A DNA stretch of 64,000 bases from a virus. The stretch lies in IMG/VR virus record IMGVR_UViG_3300017761_003320, positions 32,001 through 96,000 of that record. One strand, given 5' to 3'. The notes beneath the pieces were generated by a model. That model was not told the DNA's origin and searched no databases. It saw only the letters and a list, made by a program, of their open reading frames with translations. Positions 2,302-52,888 of the stretch are shown in pieces. The stretch's first letter is position 1, and the number at the start of each line of letters is the position of its first letter. A program made the position numbers and the translations under genes.

Positions 2302-2715
2302 ATGAGCGCGGTGCTTCACGTCCCGTCCGTCAAGCGACTCGGCCGACATGTAATCGCCGAGTTCTGGGATGTCGAGCCTAACGTATTATGTGGGGTTGGC
2401 TTGCTAGAGTCAATCTTTGTAGATGCTTGCCGTGAGTCAGGCGCAACTGTTCTCCATAGCAATTTTCATGGCTTTGGAGAAGGTTGCGGCGTGACTGGTG
2501 TAGTGATTCTTTCTGAGAGTCATGCATCTGTTCACACCTGGCCTGAATATGGTTATGCAGCTGTGGATGTATTCATGTGTGGTTCATGTGATCCAAACAT
2601 TGCTGTGAAAGCCATCTATAATCGTCTGGCAGAGGCCAATGGCAAATATGCCATAGGTTCTGAAAGCCACACATTTCATCGTGGTATCCTAGAGCAGATT
2701 GAAATTACACATTGA
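2302..2715 (+). CDS. speD: S-adenosylmethionine decarboxylase proenzyme
   Basis: GRHVIAE, GVTGVVILSESHASVHTWPEYGYAAVDVFMCG canonical motif. Confidence 0.9.
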   Translation: MSAVLHVPSVKRLGRHVIAEFWDVEPNVLCGVGLLESIFVDACRESGATVLHSNFHGFGEGCGVTGVVILSESHASVHTWPEYGYAAVDVFMCGSCDPNIAVKAIYNRLAEANGKYAIGSESHTFHRGILEQIEITH

Positions 2716-2740
2716 CATCCCTCTAGAAATCATATAGTAT
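2712..2740 (+). promoter_or_regulatory. sigma70-type promoter
   Basis: TTGACA-17bp-TAGTAT. Confidence 0.6.
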
Positions 2741-2746
2741 AGTACC

Positions 2747-2908
2747 ATGAGCAAACAGACGCAAACACGTAAATTCCGAGTCCGCACCTCTGAGGGTCGG
2801 GTATATATCGTAGAGAAATATGGCTTCTCTGTGACTTGCACGTGCAAGGGGTTTGGTTATCGTAACAAGTGTAAGCACTCTGATGCTATTAAGTGTTTTC
2901 CGGGTTAG
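2747..2908 (+). CDS. small SWIM zinc-finger protein (53 aa, not in ORF track)
   Basis: MSKQTQ...VTCTCKGFGYRNKCKHSDAIK; CxC-x7-CxH; stop overlaps tRNA-Asn. Confidence 0.7.
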   Translation: MSKQTQTRKFRVRTSEGRVYIVEKYGFSVTCTCKGFGYRNKCKHSDAIKCFPG

Positions 2909-2974
2909 CTCAGTTGGTAGAGCAAGGGACTGTTAATCCCTGGGTCGCTGGTTCGAGTCCAGCACCCGGAGCCA
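2899..2974 (+). tRNA. tRNA-Asn(GTT)
   Basis: TCCGGGT/ACCCGGA acceptor, GTT anticodon, TTCGAG loop, CCA. Confidence 0.95.
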
Positions 2975-2978
2975 TATA

Positions 2979-3467
2979 ATGATAATACATGAAAGCAAGC
3001 GAATGTCAAAAACTGCCCGTAATATGGCTGTGGCTTTAGGTACAGCCGGTGAGATCCTAGTCGCAACCCTCCTAAAAGAAGAGGGTCGACATGTCGAGAT
3101 GTCTCATGATCAATATGATAGAGTTAAGGACATGTTGGTTGACGGTGTACAGAATGTTGAGGTCAAGACGCAGGTTCCTTTTATCAAGGAAAATGCTATG
3201 ACCTTTAGGCCAGATCAATTGGCTAAATGCACTAATGCTGACGAATTGTATTTCGTTCTAGTCTCTGCACCAAAACATAAGTATCATTATAGTGGTTGGG
3301 TAATGAAAGTTACAGAACCTAAGAATCTAGCAATTAGAGAATATCATACCAAAGACGGCCGCGACATGTTATTGGTTGATATTGATCAGCCTGCGGTGCA
3401 GCTTTGGAAACGTATTCCTAAGCAACATTTGTCTTTGATGAATAATCTTACGGTATCAAAATATTGA
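2979..3467 (+). CDS. putative PD-(D/E)XK nuclease-fold protein
   Basis: GxxGE helix followed by D...VEVKT motif. Confidence 0.5.
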   Translation: MIIHESKRMSKTARNMAVALGTAGEILVATLLKEEGRHVEMSHDQYDRVKDMLVDGVQNVEVKTQVPFIKENAMTFRPDQLAKCTNADELYFVLVSAPKHKYHYSGWVMKVTEPKNLAIREYHTKDGRDMLLVDIDQPAVQLWKRIPKQHLSLMNNLTVSKY

Positions 3468-3679
3468 CGATATATTTCAGACCACCAACTTCACATCCAA
3501 GGGCTGGCGAAAAAGTAAAACTGAAAAAGCCTGATGGTCGATTGATTGATGCTGAGATACATTGGGTATATGGCCAAGACAAGTATTTTTTAGTCTCTGT
3601 CAAAGATAAGAAATATGAAGAAGGTCTTACGTTTGAAGTTACTTCTGTAAAAAATATAGAATTTATTACAGATACATAG
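3464..3679 (+). CDS. hypothetical protein
   Basis: ORF fills the gap between genes. Confidence 0.5.
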   Translation: MTIYFRPPTSHPRAGEKVKLKKPDGRLIDAEIHWVYGQDKYFLVSVKDKKYEEGLTFEVTSVKNIEFITDT

Positions 3680-3685
3680 GGTTAA

Positions 3686-3760
3686 GCTGGGTTAGCACAA
3701 CGGTAGTGCAACGGTTTTGTAAACCGTAGGTTGGGGGTTCGAATCCCTCACCCAGCACCA
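3686..3760 (+). tRNA. tRNA-Thr(TGT)
   Basis: GCTGGGT/ACCCAGC acceptor, ACGGT-TTTGTAA-ACCGT arm, CCA. Confidence 0.95.
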
Positions 3761-3778
3761 TAGAAAGGTGCGCGCCAT

Positions 3779-4327
3779 ATGCCTAATAAGTTTGAAACTG
3801 AATTTTCAAAATATAAATGTGATAAGCATTATCACAGATACCATGAATATTATAATGAGATCATAGGCGATTCTATGGTCAAATCTATTCTTGAAATTGG
3901 TGTTGCATATGGCGCTTCTTTAAAAGCTTGGAGATCGATATGGCCTGAAGCCACAGTAGAGGGTGTTGATCTATTTCGGCAATATGATCCAAATCTGGAA
4001 AATGATTTTAAAATTTACAATTTGGATTCAACAGATAAAGCACAAGCTGATCTAATTGATAAGACATATGATATCATAGTCGATGATGGTTGTCATGATT
4101 GGCTTCAACAGCTAACAACTTTTAATAATTACAAAGATAAAGTCAATAAATTTTATGTAATTGAAGATGTGAAAGGCGCCCGCTCACTTGATAATTTAGT
4201 GCGGCGCCTTCCTGTGGATCTATCAAAGGATAGAATTTTTATATCCCATGGACATCAACGTGAATTTGAAGTTGATGGTGTTACAAAGAAGGATTCTTAT
4301 CGAATCATATTCATTGATATGAGATAA
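3779..4327 (+). CDS. class I SAM-dependent methyltransferase (sugar O-methyltransferase-like)
   Basis: ILEIGVAYGASL and DIIVDDGCH motifs. Confidence 0.8.
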   Translation: MPNKFETEFSKYKCDKHYHRYHEYYNEIIGDSMVKSILEIGVAYGASLKAWRSIWPEATVEGVDLFRQYDPNLENDFKIYNLDSTDKAQADLIDKTYDIIVDDGCHDWLQQLTTFNNYKDKVNKFYVIEDVKGARSLDNLVRRLPVDLSKDRIFISHGHQREFEVDGVTKKDSYRIIFIDMR

Positions 4328-4360
4328 TTAGTTAATCCATGATTTTTGATAAAACATGAT

Positions 4361-5488
4361 CTAAATTAAAGCACTCTTGTGGCTATTGATTCCGCATTTG
4401 GCAATGCATACTGCGGTCTTGCCACAAGATATGCTTTTCTTGTACCAGCTTATTTCAATTTCTTCGAATATGCCACTTTCAAATATATTTTCAATGCTAT
4501 TGATATTTAAATCATTAAAATCTTTACCGAATTGTTCATACATCTGAATAAGCTGTTGACCTTTAGAATCACCAGGTAAATTAATAGTACTGGCGATATA
4601 GCAACATGGATATAATCTACCTTTGTAATCAATGTATATTGATTTTTTACCTGAATTTACTTTACAAGAGATTTTATCATTACCATATCGATTTTCTAAT
4701 GATTTATAATCATCTGATGATATTTCAAATCTAGTCGGTCTGGTTATCTTTTTTACCAATTTCATTGAGGTTTCCATAAGATCATGACTAATATCATTAT
4801 TGTCATTTTCTGACGGGTATATTACATGAGTCAGATTCAAATTTTTATCATATACTGGCCAATTAGTTACACCATTTTTACCCATTGTAGAAAATCTATC
4901 AGTTAATCTTTGGGAAAAAGTTGTCACATTCCATTCTTTAGAAAGTGACTTAGCTTCATTGATTTGATGTTTATTATGACGAAATACATTCATAATCCAG
5001 GCTGAATGATTTCTTTTGCCTAATTTTATTGATTCTTCTGTATATGTTTTAACATTTCTTTCTAATAAATCCCAATTAACAAATTGTCGGTATAGATGAT
5101 TAGTGTCCCTAAGACCATCTATACCAAAATCACATTTATCCACTAAATGTGCTATATCAGTCCAGAATTTCTTATCTCTAGCACCGCCATTGGTGCTTAA
5201 GGTGATATGAATATTAGGATTTATTGATCTAATATATTTTACTATCGGAATAAAGTCTTTATTCACAATCGCATCGCCATAATTACCACAAAAATGAATA
5301 AGTTTTATATTGGATAAAAGACTATGCTGTAATATATTTTTAGCTGAGGATAATGTCATATCTACACTACCAATATCTTCTCTTAATAGTGTAGTATAAT
5401 TATAATATCTAGGACACATTGGACATCCAGCATTACATTTTGTGGTTATTTCAAGATGCAGATGTGTTAAATCATGTAATGAATACAA
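4361..5488 (-). CDS. radical SAM protein with SPASM/twitch domain
   Basis: CNAGCPMC motif; C-terminal C...GRLYPCC...CxxxC. Confidence 0.9.
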   Translation of the reverse strand: MYSLHDLTHLHLEITTKCNAGCPMCPRYYNYTTLLREDIGSVDMTLSSAKNILQHSLLSNIKLIHFCGNYGDAIVNKDFIPIVKYIRSINPNIHITLSTNGGARDKKFWTDIAHLVDKCDFGIDGLRDTNHLYRQFVNWDLLERNVKTYTEESIKLGKRNHSAWIMNVFRHNKHQINEAKSLSKEWNVTTFSQRLTDRFSTMGKNGVTNWPVYDKNLNLTHVIYPSENDNNDISHDLMETSMKLVKKITRPTRFEISSDDYKSLENRYGNDKISCKVNSGKKSIYIDYKGRLYPCCYIASTINLPGDSKGQQLIQMYEQFGKDFNDLNINSIENIFESGIFEEIEISWYKKSISCGKTAVCIAKCGINSHKSALI

Positions 5489-6145
5489 TCAGTTGACCCA
5501 TTCTACTGGAATTGGTTGTTTTTGCTTAGTCGGAAACATGAAATCTTCAATCTGATGAATACGACGATTGCGAGTCTTATCAGCAATTCCAATTCCCATT
5601 AGTAGCAATGGTCGTCCCTTTATATTCATTTCTTTTTGAACTTCATTGGATATAAAGCAAGTGCAGCATCCAGTCGCATAACCCATTAGAGATGCGGTAA
5701 GATTTAAATATCCAGCGGCCACACCAATAGCCATCATTCTATCTTTTTCGATAAGTTTTAGATCACTGTCTTTCGCTGTTCCATTTGTCAGATCAATAAC
5801 TTGTTCATTACGACCAGCATCCTGAGCCTTTGATAGATCAAGATATTCTTCAAATACGATCAATAAGTTAGCAAGCACTTGAGCATTTGTTGTATATTCG
5901 GTCTTGTCGCGAGTTTCACCATGCTTCATCACAAAACCCTTTGTGTGTCCATGGATTCGCTCGATAAGATCACGGTTGGTTACAAAATGTAATTTATAAA
6001 ATGCAATATTTTGTTTGCTTGGGCATTGTGTGGCCGCAATCATTAAGGTGTCCAAATCATCTTCAGGCATTTCTTGGGTAAGATCCCAATTACGCTGACA
6101 ATGTTGACTCTTAAAAATCGATTTTTTTATGGCGACATGATCCAT
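5489..6145 (-). CDS. nitroreductase family protein
   Basis: QHCQRNWD, AATQCPSKQN, LTASLMGYATGCC; start after GGGAG RBS; GATAAATA late-like promoter upstream. Confidence 0.75.
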   Translation of the reverse strand: MDHVAIKKSIFKSQHCQRNWDLTQEMPEDDLDTLMIAATQCPSKQNIAFYKLHFVTNRDLIERIHGHTKGFVMKHGETRDKTEYTTNAQVLANLLIVFEEYLDLSKAQDAGRNEQVIDLTNGTAKDSDLKLIEKDRMMAIGVAAGYLNLTASLMGYATGCCTCFISNEVQKEMNIKGRPLLLMGIGIADKTRNRRIHQIEDFMFPTKQKQPIPVEWVN

Positions 6146-6209
6146 TTTTAGTCGGCTCCCATACTTTGCCTTTGACATATTTATCCGAATCTGTTATATA
6201 GTACTACAT

Positions 6210-6297
6210 GGAAGGGTGGCCGAGCGGTTTAAGGCACCGCACTTGAAATGCGACGATCTGAAAAGATCCGTGAGTTCGAATCTCACCCCTTCCGCCA
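6210..6297 (+). tRNA. tRNA-Ser(TGA)
   Basis: Cloverleaf with long variable arm, CCA. Confidence 0.95.
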
Positions 6298-6303
6298 AAA
6301 TTT

Positions 6304-6393
6304 GGAAAGATGGCTGAGAGGCCTAAAGCACTCGGTTGCTAACTGAGCGGTCTAGAAATAGATCCGTGGGTTCGAATCCCACTCTTTCCGCCA
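6304..6393 (+). tRNA. tRNA-Ser(GCT)
   Basis: Cloverleaf with long variable arm, CCA. Confidence 0.95.
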
Positions 6394-6401
6394 AGTTTTG
6401 T

Positions 6402-6474
6402 GGGGAATTAGCTCAGATGGTAGAGCGCCTGCTTTGCAAGCAGGTGGTCAGCGGTTCGATTCCGCTATTCTCCA
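6402..6474 (+). tRNA. tRNA-Ala(TGC)
   Basis: GGGGAAT/ATTCTCC acceptor with G3:U70, TGC anticodon. Confidence 0.95.
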
Positions 6475-6477
6475 TAT

Positions 6478-6554
6478 GCCTGTGTAGCCCAACTGGTAGA
6501 GGCACTAGACTTAGGATCTAGCAAGTGTAGGTTCAAATCCTATCACAGGTACCA
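6478..6554 (+). tRNA. tRNA-Leu(TAG), short variable arm
   Basis: CTAGA-CTTAGGA-TCTAG arm, CCA. Confidence 0.9.
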
Positions 6555-6557
6555 TTA

Positions 6558-6629
6558 GCCCGGTTAGCTCAGCGGTAGAGCAACTCCTTTACACGGAGAA
6601 GGTCGGCGGTTCAATCCTGTCACCGGGTA
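6558..6629 (+). tRNA. tRNA-Val(TAC)
   Basis: GCCCGGT/ACCGGGT acceptor, TTTACAC loop. Confidence 0.9.
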
Positions 6630-6650
6630 TACCATACATAAGGATTGAAT

Positions 6651-6809
6651 ATGAATTATTCTGTTGATATGATGAAGCGAGCCGTATTTCATGATGAACT
6701 CGTAAATGTGATTAATACCATGCCAATTGAAAATGTTGATGCGAATATTGTGGCTGTGAAAGAATATCTCACACGCAGACTAAAAGAATTTGATCGCAAA
6801 TATAAATAA
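6651..6809 (+). CDS. small hypothetical protein (52 aa, not in ORF track)
   Basis: MNYSVDMMKRAVFHDEL...RKYK* after AAGGA RBS. Confidence 0.5.
   Translation: MNYSVDMMKRAVFHDELVNVINTMPIENVDANIVAVKEYLTRRLKEFDRKYK
6801..6808 (+). promoter_or_regulatory. T4-type late promoter
   Basis: Exact TATAAATA about 24 bp upstream of the csgF start; gp33 is encoded in this window. Confidence 0.8.
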
Positions 6810-6831
6810 GGTCGATATCATAGGAGGTACC

Positions 6832-7272
6832 ATGAAAAGATTGGTAGTCCTTGCTATGTTTTTTGCTCCTATGTCTAATGCGAGTGAGCTTACCCATTCT
6901 TTTAATTCACCATCGTTTAATGGCGCGGGCTATAGTTCCCACGTTTTGACGATTTATCAGCTTGAGCAAGCTGCAAAGCAGCGCCAAGAAGATCGCCGCA
7001 GGCAAGAAATTGCCGCGGCTCTTCGTGCTGAGCAAAACAGTCCAGGTAATCAGTTTATGCAGGCCTTCCAGTCGCTTGTATATTCACAGCTTGCAAAAAG
7101 CATGTCTGAACAGTTATTCGGTGAAACACCTCAGAATAACGGCAGTCTTTCCTTTAGCAATGTTACTATAGCTTGGGTTCGATCTGGTTCTGAAGTATCC
7201 ATGACGATCAATGATCGATCAACCAATTCTGTTACAACAATAACAGTTCCCATAGGAGCCTTCGCATTTTAA
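6832..7272 (+). CDS. csgF: curli assembly component CsgF-like
   Basis: Signal peptide, then ELTHSFNSPSFNG resembling the CsgF N-terminal NPSFGG motif; AGGAGG RBS; adjacent to csgG. Confidence 0.8.
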   Translation: MKRLVVLAMFFAPMSNASELTHSFNSPSFNGAGYSSHVLTIYQLEQAAKQRQEDRRRQEIAAALRAEQNSPGNQFMQAFQSLVYSQLAKSMSEQLFGETPQNNGSLSFSNVTIAWVRSGSEVSMTINDRSTNSVTTITVPIGAFAF

Positions 7273-8045
7273 AAATCCTAGCTTTTGCTATGATGTTGGG
7301 ATTTACAGGATGCTCTTTGATAGACCAAACCACGAATCTGCTAGAAACAGAACCTGAGACGGTGAAGCCGAAGACAGATGAACTTCGTCCACCTAAGAAC
7401 GGTGTGATGACTGTTGCTGTCTATAGATTCAATGATCAGACTGGTCAGCGCCGTTATTCAGAAAGAATTGCATCACTTAGCTCCGCGGTCACACAAGGCG
7501 CTGATTCATATTTAATTCAAGCTTTACAATCAGTCGGTCGGGGCCAATGGTTTCGCGTAGTTGAGCGTGGTGGTATTGAAAATCTGCTAAGAGAACGGCA
7601 GATTATACGACAGATGCGCGAACTTTATGAAGGCCCAACAGCTAGACAAATGTCTCCACTATTGTTTGCTGGTTTGATAATTGATGGTGGTATCATAGGA
7701 TATGACACCAATATTGCTACTGGAGGTGTTGGAGCACGCGCATTTGGTATTGGTGGCTCAACCGAATATCGCACAGATTTGGTTACAGTTACTTTGCGCG
7801 CGGTCTCAGTAACCACAGGTGAGGTTTTAATCACGGTTACAACTACAAAACGTATTCATAGCTATGTTGACAAAATGGGTGTATTGAAATTTGTCAGCGG
7901 TGGTACAGTTTCATGGGAAGGCGAGGTTGGCTCATCAACAAATGATAGTGTCAATCTAGCAATACAACTGGCTATACAATCTTCTGTGCGCGAGATGGTA
8001 GAAGAAGGAGTTCGTAGAGGACTCTGGGAATATCAACCCCAATAA
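7266..8045 (+). CDS. csgG: curli secretion channel CsgG/HfaB-family lipoprotein
   Basis: VAVYRFNDQTGQR, AVTQGA, WFRVVERGGIENLLRERQIIR, GGIIGYD; lipobox FTGC; probable ATT start at 7266 (first ATG 7290). Confidence 0.92.
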   Translation: MLKILAFAMMLGFTGCSLIDQTTNLLETEPETVKPKTDELRPPKNGVMTVAVYRFNDQTGQRRYSERIASLSSAVTQGADSYLIQALQSVGRGQWFRVVERGGIENLLRERQIIRQMRELYEGPTARQMSPLLFAGLIIDGGIIGYDTNIATGGVGARAFGIGGSTEYRTDLVTVTLRAVSVTTGEVLITVTTTKRIHSYVDKMGVLKFVSGGTVSWEGEVGSSTNDSVNLAIQLAIQSSVREMVEEGVRRGLWEYQPQ

Positions 8046-8058
8046 CATAGAGGACAAA

Positions 8059-8715
8059 ATGTTTAGGTTACTAACGTTTGCCATGATGCTGCTATTTGCG
8101 GTGCCCGCGGCGGCGCAGACCAATAGCGTATACATCGATCAGATCGGTTCATCCAATGTGATCGATATCACTCAGGCTGGTTCTGGTAATCGCATAGGTG
8201 CATCAGTAACACCTAGCACGATCACAGGATCAACAAATACTGTCACCATCACACAGACTGGTGATACGAATGCGCTTGACTATTCTATAAACGGCGGAAC
8301 CAATACGGCCACACTAGCATATACTGGTAACGGTAATACTGCAACTCTGACATGCGGTAATAATACCACATCATGTAATGATGCTGCTATTACTCATACA
8401 ATTATCGGTGATGACAATATCATCAGCACATTGATGACTGGTAATGGTCTGACAAATACTCTGACCGTCACAGGAAATAGCAATAACATTTCCACAAACC
8501 AAAACGGTAATGACAAGACACAGAATATGACATTGACTGGTGATAGTAATACTATTGTGGCCACTCAAGCTGGTGTTGGTACGCATAGCTTGACAATGTC
8601 TGTCACAGGTAATTCAAATACCTATGATATTAGTCAGGCTGGTGCTGTAACAAATACGTTGGTTATCAATACACAAGGATCGAATAATAGCATCATAATT
8701 AGCCAGACTAACTAA
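8059..8715 (+). CDS. curlin-repeat protein (CsgA/CsgB-like amyloid subunit)
   Basis: Signal peptide; repeated N-x-x-x-I-x-Q-x-G-x-x-N units; G/N/T/S-rich. Confidence 0.8.
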   Translation: MFRLLTFAMMLLFAVPAAAQTNSVYIDQIGSSNVIDITQAGSGNRIGASVTPSTITGSTNTVTITQTGDTNALDYSINGGTNTATLAYTGNGNTATLTCGNNTTSCNDAAITHTIIGDDNIISTLMTGNGLTNTLTVTGNSNNISTNQNGNDKTQNMTLTGDSNTIVATQAGVGTHSLTMSVTGNSNTYDISQAGAVTNTLVINTQGSNNSIIISQTN

Positions 8716-9653
8716 TGTTTCGCTGGCTGCTATTAGCCTTGCTGCTACCAGTTATTGCATCGGCTAACGTCGGTTCGATAATACAGCAGCAAGGCAATTC
8801 TGTGCAGATTAAAAGAGGATCTGCTACCTTACCTGGTGGGGTAAATGCTGGCGTAAATATGAATGATGCGATAGTCACTGGTCTATCATCATTACAATTA
8901 CGTTTTCAAGATAATACGACGGCCAGCGTCACAGAGAATAGCAGATTTGTCATCGATGATTTTGTATATGATCCAAGCCGTGGTGCAGGAAGATTAAATG
9001 TTCGCGTGGCTGTCGGCACAGTGAGATATGTCTCAGGTCAGATAGCACGCAGCAATCAGCAAAACGTGCAGGTCAATACACCAACAGCCGTCATAGGTGT
9101 GCGTGGTACAGATTTCTTTATGACTGTCGATGAATCTGGGCAAAGCTTAGTGGTGCTTGTTCCTAGCTGCAATCAGCAAGGTAATTGCTACACTGGTAAG
9201 ATATCTGTGACTAATGATGGTGGTACAGTCGAGATGGATCAACCATTTCATGCAACATATGTACCAAGCGCGACGGTAGCTCCTACTGTTCCTGTGCAAC
9301 TGAATATTTCAATATCTGATATCAATAACAATCTGGTGATAGTAAAACCACCACAGATCATGCTATTGATGCAGGAATCCCAGTCATCACAACAATCATC
9401 AGAAGCACAGCAATCTGAGAATCAGTTACAGATTGTACAGACGGAGACTCGTCGACCAATTCGTAGGGTTGGAGAGCTAATTATAACTGAAGAAGGTCAG
9501 AGAACAATAGCAACTAGAGAATCAACAGGCCATACTGCAATCGTAAGAATGACTGGTGGCAATACAAGGGTAACAGTAACACATGATGGTGCCGCTGCAA
9601 CAGAAACGGTTGGTACAGGATCTAATATAGTAAATATAACACAGAAAAGGTGA
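8715..9653 (+). CDS. secreted FecR-domain protein
   Basis: Signal peptide; D.I.TG...L.F.D.T, TPTAVIGVRGTDF motifs. Confidence 0.85.
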   Translation: MFRWLLLALLLPVIASANVGSIIQQQGNSVQIKRGSATLPGGVNAGVNMNDAIVTGLSSLQLRFQDNTTASVTENSRFVIDDFVYDPSRGAGRLNVRVAVGTVRYVSGQIARSNQQNVQVNTPTAVIGVRGTDFFMTVDESGQSLVVLVPSCNQQGNCYTGKISVTNDGGTVEMDQPFHATYVPSATVAPTVPVQLNISISDINNNLVIVKPPQIMLLMQESQSSQQSSEAQQSENQLQIVQTETRRPIRRVGELIITEEGQRTIATRESTGHTAIVRMTGGNTRVTVTHDGAAATETVGTGSNIVNITQKR

Positions 9654-9658
9654 GTGTG

Positions 9659-11707
9659 ATGAAAAAATATGTACTTGCACTATCAGTATTACTGGTCATG
9701 ATCGCGCTAAAGGTATTAGACCCATGGCCAGCGCAGGTTGCACGTCTTAAATATTTTGACTTTCTAGAACGTCAGGCTGATATGGTACTTGATGATTCTA
9801 TTGTGCTAGCCAATATTGATGAGGCTGCATTACGAAAGCATGGGCAATGGCCATGGTCACGAGACGTTATTGCAGAATATATTCAAGATATTAGCAATCG
9901 TGGTGCGGCGCTTGTAGTCGCTCCGATTCTATTTGCAGAACCTGATCGCGCAGGAAAAGATAGTGTTCTGGAGCAAGCATTTCGCGAGCATCCAGTAGTA
10001 ATCGCACAGGTTCCTACGACTCAGGTGCGCGAACCATATGCAAGACCACGAGGCTCTGCGCTAATTGGCCCACCAATTGCTGATGTTTTACCAAGCTGGC
10101 CAGGTGCGATAGCACCGCTTCCACGTCTTGCTGAAGAAGCTGCTGGTGTTGGTATGGTTGCGACTATGCCTGAGCCAGATGGTGTGGTGCGTCGTAGCCC
10201 AATGCTTGTCGCAGTTGGTGATAAATTCTACCCATCAATTACCTTTGAGACATTGAGAGTTTTATCTGGCGAGATAAGCTTTCAAGTCAGATCAAATGAA
10301 GCTGGTGTCGAGGTGCTACGCATTCCAGGTCAGCCTCTCATGTATACTGATCCGAATAGTCGCATCTGGCCTAGTCGCGCATTTACATATCAATCATTTT
10401 CTGTCACAGATATGCCTGAGGATCTAGACGGAAAGATTGTCATATTATCCATGACGGCTGAAGGCTTTAGTAATCCTGTCGCGACAAGTCATGGTGAAAT
10501 GTTACCGGGAACTGTGATTGCAACAGACCTATCATCAATATTGAATCAAGTTCTATTGGTGCGACCTGCTGAAGCTGATTTCTATGAGCTTATAGCTATT
10601 TTGTTATTTGGTCTGGTTATGGTATTCTTAGCCATAAGAGTCAAACTGGTTCTAGCTGGTCTGTTATTCTTGCTGCCAGTTTCTGGTTTAATTGCAGCTT
10701 CATGGTTCGCGCATAGCTATTACTTCATACTATATGATGCTGTGCTGCCAGTATTATCATTGCTTCTGGTATTTGGTACTGGCGCTTTCTCACGCGCGCT
10801 TGAAGAGTTCCGCTTGAAGCAACAGATCAAGAAACAGTTTGGTACGTATCTGTCACCAGCGATGGTCGAGAAGCTACAAGAGAATCCGGATCTGTTGAAG
10901 CTTGGTGGTGAGGAGCGCGAGCTGTCAATCATGTTCACAGACGTGCGCGGCTTCACAGCTATCTCCGAACACTATGGTAAAGACGTGCAAGGCCTGACTA
11001 AGATCATGAATCGTTATATGACTGCAATGACGGCCTCAATACTTCGCAATGAAGGTACGCTTGACAAATACATCGGTGATGCACAGATGGCATTCTGGAA
11101 TGCGCCACTTGATGATAAAGATCATGCAAAAAATGCAGTCAAAACAATGCTAGAGATGCTAGACAACCTAAAGGAGTTCAATGATGAAATCGCAAAAGAA
11201 GGTGTCCCGGCGTTTGGTATGGGGCTTGGGATCAATACTGGTACTGTCGTCGTTGGCAACATGGGCAGTGATCAACGCTTCGACTATACTTGCTTGGGTG
11301 ACTCTGTCAACCTTGCCTCTCGACTTGAAGGCCAGTCAAAACCTTATGGAGTCAGCAACGTCATCGGTACCCTCACTTACCGATACGTTAGAGAAGAATA
11401 CCTCTGCCTTGCCCTCGATACCATTGCGGTAAAGGGTAAGAAAGAAGGGGTCGACATCTATACTGTGCTTGGTAGACCAGAAGATATTGTTCATGTCAAG
11501 ATGGATCTAGATATGCACGCGAACATGATGAAATCATATAAGAGCCGTCGATTTGATGACGCAATCTATTATGCAAAGCGTCTCAAAGGATGCTTTGGTG
11601 GTAAGATGGATGCTTATTATGCTATGTGGATGGAGCGCTGTGAAGAATTAAAAAGTGCTGGTTTATCAGAAACTTGGGACGGTGTTTTCAGAGCAAATAG
11701 TAAGTGA
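9659..11707 (+). CDS. CHASE2-domain class III adenylate cyclase
   Basis: N-terminal TM, CHASE2 (IDEAAL...GQWPWSR, DGVVRR), three TMs, intact catalytic motifs FTDVRGFT, DKYIGDA, DYTCLGDSVNLASRLE. Confidence 0.95.
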   Translation: MKKYVLALSVLLVMIALKVLDPWPAQVARLKYFDFLERQADMVLDDSIVLANIDEAALRKHGQWPWSRDVIAEYIQDISNRGAALVVAPILFAEPDRAGKDSVLEQAFREHPVVIAQVPTTQVREPYARPRGSALIGPPIADVLPSWPGAIAPLPRLAEEAAGVGMVATMPEPDGVVRRSPMLVAVGDKFYPSITFETLRVLSGEISFQVRSNEAGVEVLRIPGQPLMYTDPNSRIWPSRAFTYQSFSVTDMPEDLDGKIVILSMTAEGFSNPVATSHGEMLPGTVIATDLSSILNQVLLVRPAEADFYELIAILLFGLVMVFLAIRVKLVLAGLLFLLPVSGLIAASWFAHSYYFILYDAVLPVLSLLLVFGTGAFSRALEEFRLKQQIKKQFGTYLSPAMVEKLQENPDLLKLGGEERELSIMFTDVRGFTAISEHYGKDVQGLTKIMNRYMTAMTASILRNEGTLDKYIGDAQMAFWNAPLDDKDHAKNAVKTMLEMLDNLKEFNDEIAKEGVPAFGMGLGINTGTVVVGNMGSDQRFDYTCLGDSVNLASRLEGQSKPYGVSNVIGTLTYRYVREEYLCLALDTIAVKGKKEGVDIYTVLGRPEDIVHVKMDLDMHANMMKSYKSRRFDDAIYYAKRLKGCFGGKMDAYYAMWMERCEELKSAGLSETWDGVFRANSK

Positions 11708-12031: not shown

Positions 12032-12184
12032 TTAGCGACCTTGGCCTTTATATTTTTTGTAGCAGCGTCTCTTGGCCTTGTTCATTGAAGATGTCTTTAG
12101 AATGCCACCACCAATGCTTGTATGCTTCTGTATTCGCACATGAGCAAGAACTGCTGTTTCTTTTGGTTTAGATGATTTAGCCAT
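12032..12184 (-). CDS. small basic protein (50 aa, not in ORF track)
   Basis: MAKSSKPK...TSIGGG...SMNKAKRRCYKKYKGQGR*; this C-terminal motif is recalled from T4-like phages; GAGGAG RBS. Confidence 0.7.
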   Translation of the reverse strand: MAKSSKPKETAVLAHVRIQKHTSIGGGILKTSSMNKAKRRCYKKYKGQGR

Positions 12185-12466: not shown

Positions 12467-12510
12467 AGCTACCTCCCATTCACCTATTTAGAGAAAGCCA
12501 CAAATAACCC

Positions 12511-43586: not shown

Positions 43587-43670
43587 TGTGATATTTTTGT
43601 CACACCACCCAGATGATTAACCAAAATTAACCAAATACCCCTGTACATCCCTCCCGGGCCGTGGTATAAT
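43587..43670 (+). promoter_or_regulatory. operator palindrome plus early promoter cassette
   Basis: TGTGA-N8-TCACA, 12 bp, TTAACCAAAATTAACC, TGTACA-17bp-TATAAT. Confidence 0.9.
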
Positions 43671-43961: not shown

Positions 43962-44045
43962 TGTGATAAAAATGTCACACCCTCTGGGTATGCCGGTTAA
44001 CCCGCCAATTTTCCTCTGTACAAGCCCCGCGGCCTGTGGTATAAT
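43962..44045 (+). promoter_or_regulatory. operator palindrome plus early promoter
   Basis: TGTGA-N8-TCACA (43962-43979), TGTACA-17bp-TATAAT. Confidence 0.85.
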
Positions 44046-45545: not shown

Positions 45546-46019
45546 GTGCTTGTAGAATATCGCCGATCACAACCTTGGCTTGTCGACCTTTTAAAGGGTG
45601 ACCCTGTTCGCCCGAATATTTCCATCGAGGATAGGTTCGCATTTAATAATGCGGTTTTCATCTATTGGGTGGATGAAAAACCTGCGGCCATATGTTGCGC
45701 CTCGCTGATGGACTATATTCCAATTGACGAAGGTGAACTGTTTGAGGAGGGCAATGAACACTATGACCATGCTTGCCTATACACGATCTGGTCATTGCAG
45801 CGCGGCGGAGCACGCAAGCTGGTTCAGGCATTGCTGCCACACCTCAGGATGAAATATGCTGTGGCGCGGATTATTACCTTATCCCCAAACACTGAAATGG
45901 CGAAAAAGTTTCACCTCAGCAACGGTGCTGTAATATACCGTAATAATTACGAGGAAGAAACGGTTAACTATGAGTACGAATTCTGTGACATAAATGTCAC
46001 AATGAGCCGGTGTGACTAA
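45546..46019 (+). CDS. conserved T4-like hypothetical protein, GNAT-like
   Basis: DPVRPNI, YTIWSLQRGGAR, TLSP.TEMAKKFHLSNGA; GTG start inferred. Confidence 0.65.
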   Translation: MLVEYRRSQPWLVDLLKGDPVRPNISIEDRFAFNNAVFIYWVDEKPAAICCASLMDYIPIDEGELFEEGNEHYDHACLYTIWSLQRGGARKLVQALLPHLRMKYAVARIITLSPNTEMAKKFHLSNGAVIYRNNYEEETVNYEYEFCDINVTMSRCD

Positions 46020-46094
46020 TATATCACACCGGTCAGATAATTAACCAAAATTAACCAAATACCCCTGTACAACCTACCCTAACCCTGGTATAAT
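45984..46094 (+). promoter_or_regulatory. tandem operator palindromes plus early promoter cassette
   Basis: TGTGA-N8-TCACA at 45984-46001 and 46011-46028, TTAACCAAAATTAACC, TGTACA-17bp-TATAAT. Confidence 0.9.
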
Positions 46095-52571: not shown

Positions 52572-52602
52572 CTTTATAAACATAACCCTGTATAAGTAGT
52601 AT

Positions 52603-52837
52603 TGTCATCGTTGATGGCGACAGAATAGATGTCACGGACCGCGGGGCGGCACCGCGCAGCTCCACCATTCATGGGGCTGAAATAGATATCGACGTGCATG
52701 GTAAAGGTTGACCGGAGATGACGGCTAGCGGCCTAACCGCTATTGATAAGTGCCAATGATAACGGCTTTGCCGTCGCACTCGCTGCCTAATAGGTAAGCG
52801 CGGTTTGGGGAGCACCGGGCAACATAAGCTCCCCACC
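52603..52837 (+). ncRNA. ssrA: circularly permuted two-piece tmRNA (alphaproteobacterial type)
   Basis: Acceptor piece ends CAGCTCCACCA (52667), 5-nt linker, coding piece starts GGGGCTGAAATAG (52673); tag ANDNGFAVALAA* at 52752-52790; outer ends approximate. Confidence 0.92.
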
Positions 52838-52888
52838 TGACTCTCATGATTACATGATGCCAGGATCAACAACAGAAGGATAATACCC

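Follow-up and report, generated by a model that had tools for sequence, protein, structure and literature searches.

What would a virus gain from placing, in a single block of genes, a curli-type secretion channel beside a membrane-bound adenylate cyclase? The question is raised by a stretch of 64,000 nucleotides (nt), here called the window, which makes up bases 32001-96000 of IMGVR_UViG_3300017761_003320, a 155,201-bp IMG/VR virus record with direct terminal repeats. On the plus strand of the window, at positions 6832-11707, five closely packed and co-oriented open reading frames (ORFs) encode CsgF, CsgG, a curlin-repeat protein, a secreted FecR-domain protein and a CHASE2/class III adenylate cyclase; the ORF listing and Pfam searches confirm a preliminary description of the sequence in this respect. 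We find that the block is the viral type VIII secretion (curli) cassette of pelagiphages and Melnitz in a compact form, and that it is real but not new. As to function, sequences and models lead us to favor, with modest confidence, a late envelope module that would export fibers and report the state of the envelope or of the fibers as cyclic AMP (cAMP).

The gene order is the published viral curli order, csgF-csgG-curlin-FecR-(curlin)-adenylate cyclase. A curli operon was reported in pelagimyophages by Zaragoza-Solas et al. in 2020 (PMC7029224), and CsgG/CsgF of Melnitz were discussed as a possible lysis pore by Buchholz et al. in 2022 (PMC9004378). Wittmers et al. (2022) described CsgF, CsgG, CsgA/B, FecR, a second CsgA/B and adenylate cyclase, with one or two "histidine kinases" ahead of them; they found this set in pelagiphages of both the podo- and the myo- type, reported its expression in metatranscriptomes, and gave it an origin in Alphaproteobacteria (PMC9599517). 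The preliminary description had known of no functional account of such a module, and we likewise found no functional paper; the genomic description, however, had already been published (PMC9599517). Within the block, the intergenic gaps are 17 and 13 nt, the other two junctions overlap, and no terminator-like site was found on the plus strand. All five genes are intact and under purifying selection, with ratios of nonsynonymous to synonymous substitution (dN/dS) of 0.03-0.15 against relatives L069, L070, and L072, values that are rough, dS being mostly saturated. Between L069 (3766-5811) and the window (9659-11707), the cyclase has a dS of only 0.23. Because the cyclase of L069 is thus far closer than the other four cassette genes (dS > 1), the comparison suggests recent recombination inside the cassette.

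Several gene starts differ from those first described. The start of csgF is ATG 6832, with the ribosome-binding site AGGAGG at 6822. For csgG, the start is most likely ATT 7266, which is in frame, lies 7 nt after the Shine-Dalgarno (SD) sequence AGGAG, and overlaps the csgF stop (ATTTTAA). Only from this start does CsgG possess a lipoprotein signal (K-ILAFAMMLGFTG before the lipobox cysteine); from the first ATG, at 7290, seven residues only would precede that cysteine. The ATT is probably the real start because it is conserved, together with the SD and a lipoprotein signal, in seven relatives (L067-L073), among which the sequence of the signal-like peptide itself varies. The region 7254-7292 is therefore a case of a rare ATT start at which standard ORF callers would truncate the lipoprotein signal. 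The cyclase could begin at ATG 9659 or at an alternative GTG 9650; ATG 9659 is the probable start because the cyclases of relatives are likewise 682 residues long. Export signals and transmembrane (TM) segments were assigned by reading the N termini and by a hydropathy scan. By these means all five proteins have an export signal or TM segment, as had been stated, CsgG having its signal only from ATT 7266, and four of the proteins are predicted to be exported.

The secretion half of the cassette follows the curli pattern. CsgF has a signal peptide and a mature N terminus, SFNSPSFNG, which resembles the FRNPNFGG of Escherichia coli; it aligns to E. coli CsgF (6l7a_J, E value of 0.006) and keeps F-x-x-P-x-F-x-G at the mature N terminus, an N-terminal segment of the type that binds the CsgG barrel. 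CsgG matches the E. coli channel protein (3x2r) with an E value of 3.5e-44 and, with the ATT start, has a lipobox. Sequence, homology, and models together identify the lipoprotein CsgG and CsgF as parts of an outer-membrane curli channel. The third protein matches Curlin_rpt in two stretches, with three matches in one frame and repeats of the form N-x3-I-x-Q-x-G-x2-N. It is the sole Curlin_rpt locus in the whole genome, and this single putative curlin is the predicted cargo of the channel.

An exact TATAAATA lies upstream of csgF and had been proposed as a late promoter. The 8-mer is indeed present, but it is not an enriched signal, with 3 occurrences in the window versus 4.9 expected, and for this reason the shorter core [AC]TAAATA was used. 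This core is found 22-50 nt 5' of eight virion genes (tail sheath, portal, major head, tail tube, neck, and three baseplate genes), and CTAAATA precedes an ORF at eight of its nine occurrences in the genome. A T4-type late-promoter core, judged as a motif, is thus common to csgF and eight structural genes. Since the csgF motif fits the class found at virion genes, it is reasonable to suppose that the cassette is probably transcribed late, together with them. The late-type motif would also suit the proposal made for Melnitz from models and synteny (PMC9004378), namely that CsgG, with or without CsgF, has been repurposed as a pinholin-like or secretin-like pore that times lysis. One of two small membrane proteins encoded next to the cassette matches a holin family, weakly and over its first 20 residues only (phrog_4898, 2.7e-4), which points in the same direction. 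We nevertheless consider a lysis pore very unlikely, as CsgG is an outer-membrane lipoprotein with a lipobox and not an inner-membrane holin, and FecR and the cyclase would be left unexplained; moreover, the argument for Melnitz assumed that there is no fiber subunit, whereas a Curlin_rpt protein is encoded here and in Melnitz's own annotation.

We then considered the signaling half. The catalytic domain of the last protein matches solved class III cyclases, such as CyaB of Pseudomonas aeruginosa (3r5g, E value of 5.5e-31), and thousands of homologues of the cyclase occur in metagenomes. All the catalytic residues named in the preliminary description (two Asp, Lys, Thr, Asn, and Arg) are present as D428, D474, K470, T544, N551, and R555 in the 682-residue numbering, as expected of a predicted class III adenylate cyclase. 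Across 53 distinct phage homologues, the metal-binding D428 and D474, K470 (which specifies adenine), and R555 never vary, while the position of T544 is T, D, or S and that of N551 is N or S. Pfam CHASE2 covers residues 17-324 and hydrophobic segments lie at 3-23 and 306-381, the makeup of a CHASE2 receptor. Hydropathy gives a layout of an N-terminal TM segment, CHASE2, about three TM segments, and a cytoplasmic cyclase, and CHASE2 is therefore placed in the periplasm.

The FecR-domain protein, which is predicted to be exported by Sec, was modeled with AlphaFold (AF2) from 45 homologues, with a predicted local distance difference test score (pLDDT) of 81. The model consists of a beta domain (residues 16-207), a helix and disordered linker (about 208-249), and a seven-strand C-terminal segment (250-310). 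Residues 48-207 match the cell-surface-signalling domain (CCSSD) of PupR (6ovk_R; Z of 15.5, root-mean-square deviation [rmsd] of 2.6 Å over 135 residues; 4m0n, Z of 14.3), and a second match, of residues 16-111, is to the periplasmic plug RIN of the adhesin MpIBP (PMC5550230; 5ix9, Z of 10.4, rmsd of 2.1 Å over 73 of 76 residues). The protein thus has the periplasmic FecR (CJM) fold. The Pfam name FecR, along with the failure to find the channel gate CsgE, could be taken to favor a suggestion made in PMC9599517, in which the pore is an uptake channel and FecR an iron-related regulator. However, the structural match spans PupR residues 111-249 only; the phage protein has a cleavable-looking signal peptide with the FecR domain starting from about residue 16, and neither the cytoplasmic anti-sigma domain nor the TM helix of FecR/PupR was found in it. 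Its bacterial relatives, in addition, adjoin CHASE2 sensors and not Fec systems. An iron-related role is, in our judgment, highly improbable, and "iron regulator" would be a misnomer, because a protein without anti-sigma domain or TM helix is not expected to act as an iron or sigma regulator.

The C-terminal beta tail of the FecR protein (nt 9450-9650) may connect the two halves of the cassette. Of 55 phage FecR proteins, 52 carry h-x-h-x-Q at the C terminus. The neighboring curlins and second curlins share this ending, and CsgF, CsgG, and the cyclases do not. In hhalign comparisons, the last 42-43 columns of the FecR tails aligned to the last two curlin repeats with an E value of about 1e-4 and a probability of 57-58%, compared to 0.03 for CsgF, 0.18 for CsgG, and at least 0.06 for 20 column-shuffled versions. 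No curlin-like tail was seen on bacterial FecR neighbors of CHASE2 cyclases. These comparisons lend moderate support to a curlin-like C-terminal tail, and it is plausible that such a tail is a physical link between secretion and signaling.

The window CsgG has 267 relatives in IMG/VR, of which the best 80 were fetched; 52 of these loci had at least 6.5 kb downstream of csgG, and CsgF was matched using the Melnitz and HTVC008M proteins as queries. Every one of the 52 carries the cyclase, in the order csgF-csgG-curlin-FecR-(second curlin)-cyclase, and in many phages a second curlin gene stands between FecR and the cyclase. The preliminary description had called for such a survey and had held that an unconserved gene order would speak against its reading; because the order is kept in all viral loci with enough flank, that objection falls away. 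The cassette was also observed on long IMG/VR contigs (L077-L082, L093, and L101; 53-364 kb), several of them of jumbo size. In a set of these contigs the cyclase is convergent, on the opposite strand, and in most a pair of small membrane-protein genes lies between FecR and the convergent cyclase.

Bacterial genomes present a different arrangement. CHASE2 cyclases 33-42% identical to the phage enzyme were found in 174 of 301 sampled Alphaproteobacteria, yet neither CsgG nor CsgF was detected within 7 kb on either side of 20 bacterial CHASE2-cyclase loci. Conversely, neither FecR nor a cyclase was detected within 9 kb on either side of eight bacterial CsgG loci, five of which encode a CsgG 43-48% identical to that of the phage, the other three showing a weak match or none. 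Among the sampled Alphaproteobacteria, curli genes and FecR/CHASE2-cyclase genes lie at different loci, and the fusion of the two occurs in the sample only on phage-type contigs, two of which are binned in one bacterial metagenome-assembled genome (MAG). FecR was the top family among 138 Pfam families within 3.5 kb of bacterial CHASE2 cyclases (5 of 20 loci), with a TolC-like OEP next. Two further observations were made at such loci. At L063 (G178:C1:25018-41219, positions 2429-9283), genes for a 979-residue FecR-DUF4114-RTX protein, a TolC-like OEP, and a CHASE2 adenylate cyclase are adjacent, which may be a cellular analogue of what is seen in the phage. Proteins of the HD_5 (HD-GYP-like) family that carry PAS or GAF domains, possible cyclic-nucleotide effectors, stand beside alphaproteobacterial CHASE2 cyclases at 3 of 20 loci (L047, L059, and one more).

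The separation in bacteria raises the question of whether the viral cassette combines two independent functions that are merely co-inherited, with curli fibers serving in aggregation or as a superinfection shield and a separate FecR/CHASE2 host-takeover cyclase raising cAMP on an unrelated periplasmic cue. The opposite strand of the cyclase in some jumbo-size contigs is consistent with this explanation, as is the report that FecR and cyclase are not in every viral curli region, especially in podophages (PMC9599517). It is difficult to reconcile, however, with the cyclase in 52 of 52 loci, with the second curlin gene lying between FecR and the cyclase in many phages, and with a curlin-like tail that the phage FecR has and the bacterial FecR neighbors of CHASE2 cyclases lack. 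We regard independent functions as doubtful.

The envelope module that we favor would work as follows. The CsgG/CsgF channel would export curlin, which would form fibers on the infected cell. The FecR protein would keep its folded N-terminal domain in the periplasm and engage curlin or the CsgG pore through its flexible linker and curlin-like tail, in the manner of the periplasmic retention plug of a type I-secreted adhesin. Periplasmic CHASE2 would read the state of the FecR protein, and the cyclase would turn that state into cytoplasmic cAMP, which is presumed to act on cAMP receptors of the host because the phage encodes no protein that binds cyclic nucleoside monophosphates (cNMP). Candidate outputs are aggregation or sibling capture, superinfection shielding, and the timing of late events. 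The sensor proposed in the preliminary description is thereby supported in part: its genes are real and selected, FecR is a recurrent partner of CHASE2 in bacteria, and the phage FecR tail appears curlin-like. What is sensed, a role in lysis timing or superinfection, and the activity of the cyclase are aspects that we infer.

A more specific version of the module is conceivable, although we think it unlikely. Here the FecR-fold protein would be a fiber anchor threaded through the pore, its tail passing through CsgG to join or nucleate the curlin fiber and its RIN/PupR-like N-terminal domain acting as a periplasmic plug, so that the CHASE2 cyclase would read plug occupancy or strain and convert fiber assembly or cell contact into cAMP. 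By analogy, such an anchor may be the curli counterpart of the bacterial FecR-headed, type I-secreted repeat protein encoded beside a CHASE2 cyclase.

A number of results weigh against a joint secretion and signaling module. A search of the 155-kb genome for CsgE (PF10627) at an E value of 0.1 gave no match, an absence also reported for alphaproteobacterial and viral versions of curli (PMC9599517), and in an alignment with E. coli CsgG the constriction of the phage channel is S-L versus N-F. The curlin-like nature of the tail was not apparent to other methods, as a curlin profile hidden Markov model (HMMER) gave no significant match to the FecR tails (best E value of 0.08), BLAST of the tail against curlin was not significant (E value of 0.1), and the tail modeled alone reached a pLDDT of 54, too poor to search, leaving a curlin-like fold unsupported. 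A domain search of the phage genome detected neither a cNMP-binding nor an HATPase protein. In bacteria, FecR lies beside only a quarter of the CHASE2 cyclases sampled. Finally, no functional work later than the three papers on viral curli was found in the literature.

The cassette is accompanied by two paralogous genes for small membrane and coiled-coil proteins of family phrog_18771 (Table 1). The stop of paralogue A abuts that of the cyclase, and paralogue B has a CTAAATA of its own at 12485-12491 on the minus strand. A phrog_18771 pair adjoins the cassette in 27 of 38 viral loci with wide flanks, in one of three alternative positions: 5' of csgF (Melnitz and HTVC008M), between FecR and a cyclase of convergent orientation, or, as here, downstream and on the opposite strand. 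Sequence comparison thus assigns the pair to the cassette. Compared by position, the two genes are probably the equivalents of the "histidine kinase" genes of Wittmers et al.; Pfam returned nothing significant for either protein, and there is no HATPase_c in the genome and no kinase domain. Paralogue B falls in virus-only clusters in the Atlas, with YvrJ as the nearest named family at 0.89, which serves as a lead only. Between the two genes, on the minus strand at 12032-12184, lies a very basic ORF of 50 residues. Since relatives such as L070 lack it and have only 2 nt between their two small membrane-protein genes, this ORF is probably either an insertion or no gene at all.

Table 1. Features of the curli cassette and its flank, in window coordinates
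Feature	Position	Strand	Evidence or remark
Late-promoter-like motif TATAAATA, [AC]TAAATA class	6801..6808	+	24 nt 5' of csgF ATG; motif evidence only
csgF, 146 aa	6832..7272	+	Pfam CsgF 1.3e-19; phrog_35372
csgG, outer-membrane lipoprotein channel	7266..8045	+	Pfam CsgG 4.4e-52; probable ATT start, first ATG 7290
Secreted curlin-repeat protein, 218 aa	8059..8715	+	Pfam Curlin_rpt 3.1e-08
Secreted FecR-domain protein, 312 aa	8715..9653	+	Pfam FecR 3.4e-11
CHASE2/class III adenylate cyclase, 682 aa	9659..11707	+	Pfam CHASE2 3.8e-35, Guanylate_cyc 2.2e-20
Small membrane and coiled-coil protein, paralogue A, 105 aa	11708..12025	-	phrog_18771 1.6e-27
Small membrane and coiled-coil protein, paralogue B, 93 aa	12185..12466	-	phrog_18771 2.3e-33

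The genome around the cassette has a G+C content of about 44%. Its major head protein shows 61-64% identity with the counterparts in T4-like cyanophages, pelagimyophages, Melnitz, and Stenotrophomonas phage DLP_6, and we therefore assign the phage to the T4-like myophages, as an uncultured member without a close cultured relative. Megablast of the block against GenBank phages gave no match, and relatives were found at the protein level only. Phage-like contigs are also binned in MAGs of Bacteroidetes, Flavobacteriaceae, and Rhodobacteraceae, but such bins are unreliable as evidence of a host. The window also contains 17 tRNA genes and a permuted two-piece transfer-messenger RNA (tmRNA) gene at 52572-52881 with the tag ANDNGFAVALAA, an unusual feature likewise reported for Melnitz-like phages. 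Five of the tRNA genes form a block at 6210-6629, immediately upstream of which, at 4361-6178 on the minus strand, is a low-G+C (32%) island with genes for a radical SAM/SPASM protein and a member of the nitroreductase family. Elsewhere, four exact TGTGA-N8-TCACA palindromes occur within 2.5 kb (43587-43604, 43962-43979, 45984-46001, and 46011-46028). Their spacing exceeds that of a CRP or Clr site by 2 bp and a tie to phage-made cAMP is unproven; canonical CRP sites (TGTGA-N6-TCACA) showed no enrichment.

Among aquatic T4-like phages the cassette is one of the more widespread accessory modules, and it would provide infected cells with both a surface structure and a source of second messenger. 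If FecR and CHASE2 do read the state of the fiber or envelope, the cassette would act as an outside-to-inside sensor encoded by a phage, and it would give a hint of what bacterial CHASE2 senses. To the published system, the window adds one more member and anatomical detail, since CHASE2, the curlin-like FecR tail, and the ATT start are not mentioned in the three papers on viral curli.

The closest known systems are the cassettes of Methylophilales phage Melnitz (MZ577097) and Pelagibacter phage HTVC008M (KC465899), which have a T4-like backbone, as here, and agree with the window cassette in gene content and order: small membrane pair, csgF, csgG, curlin, FecR, and cyclase. The window cyclase is 42% identical to that of Melnitz and 38% identical to that of HTVC008M. 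The copy in the window differs from the pelagiphage and Melnitz cassettes in having no second curlin between FecR and the cyclase, and its small membrane pair lies downstream on the opposite strand with its own CTAAATA. With E. coli curli, the phage block shares the CsgG channel, a CsgF with an N-terminal pore-binding motif, and a secreted curlin-repeat subunit. In contrast to E. coli, the phage has no CsgE, CsgD, or recognizable separate CsgB, the residues of its constriction loop differ, and its block is fused to a signaling pair.

That signaling pair has published bacterial counterparts in the BiofilmReg operon of Burkholderia (PMC5192318) and in cyaD1-smc02177 of Sinorhizobium meliloti (PMC5498481), where, as in the phage, an exported FecR protein is encoded beside a CHASE2 membrane sensor; the output of rhizobial CHASE2 is a class III adenylate cyclase, again as predicted for the phage. 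The bacterial FecR partners, however, carry LysM or long C-terminal extensions instead of a curlin-like tail and do not lie beside curli genes. A further parallel is the retention of type I-secreted adhesins (RIN of MpIBP, 5IX9; LapA), in which a folded N-terminal domain is followed by a repeat region suited to export, as in the phage FecR protein. There, the likeness is one of fold, which by itself says nothing of function, and the threading of the phage tail through the pore is hypothetical; the channel in the phage would be CsgG and not TolC.

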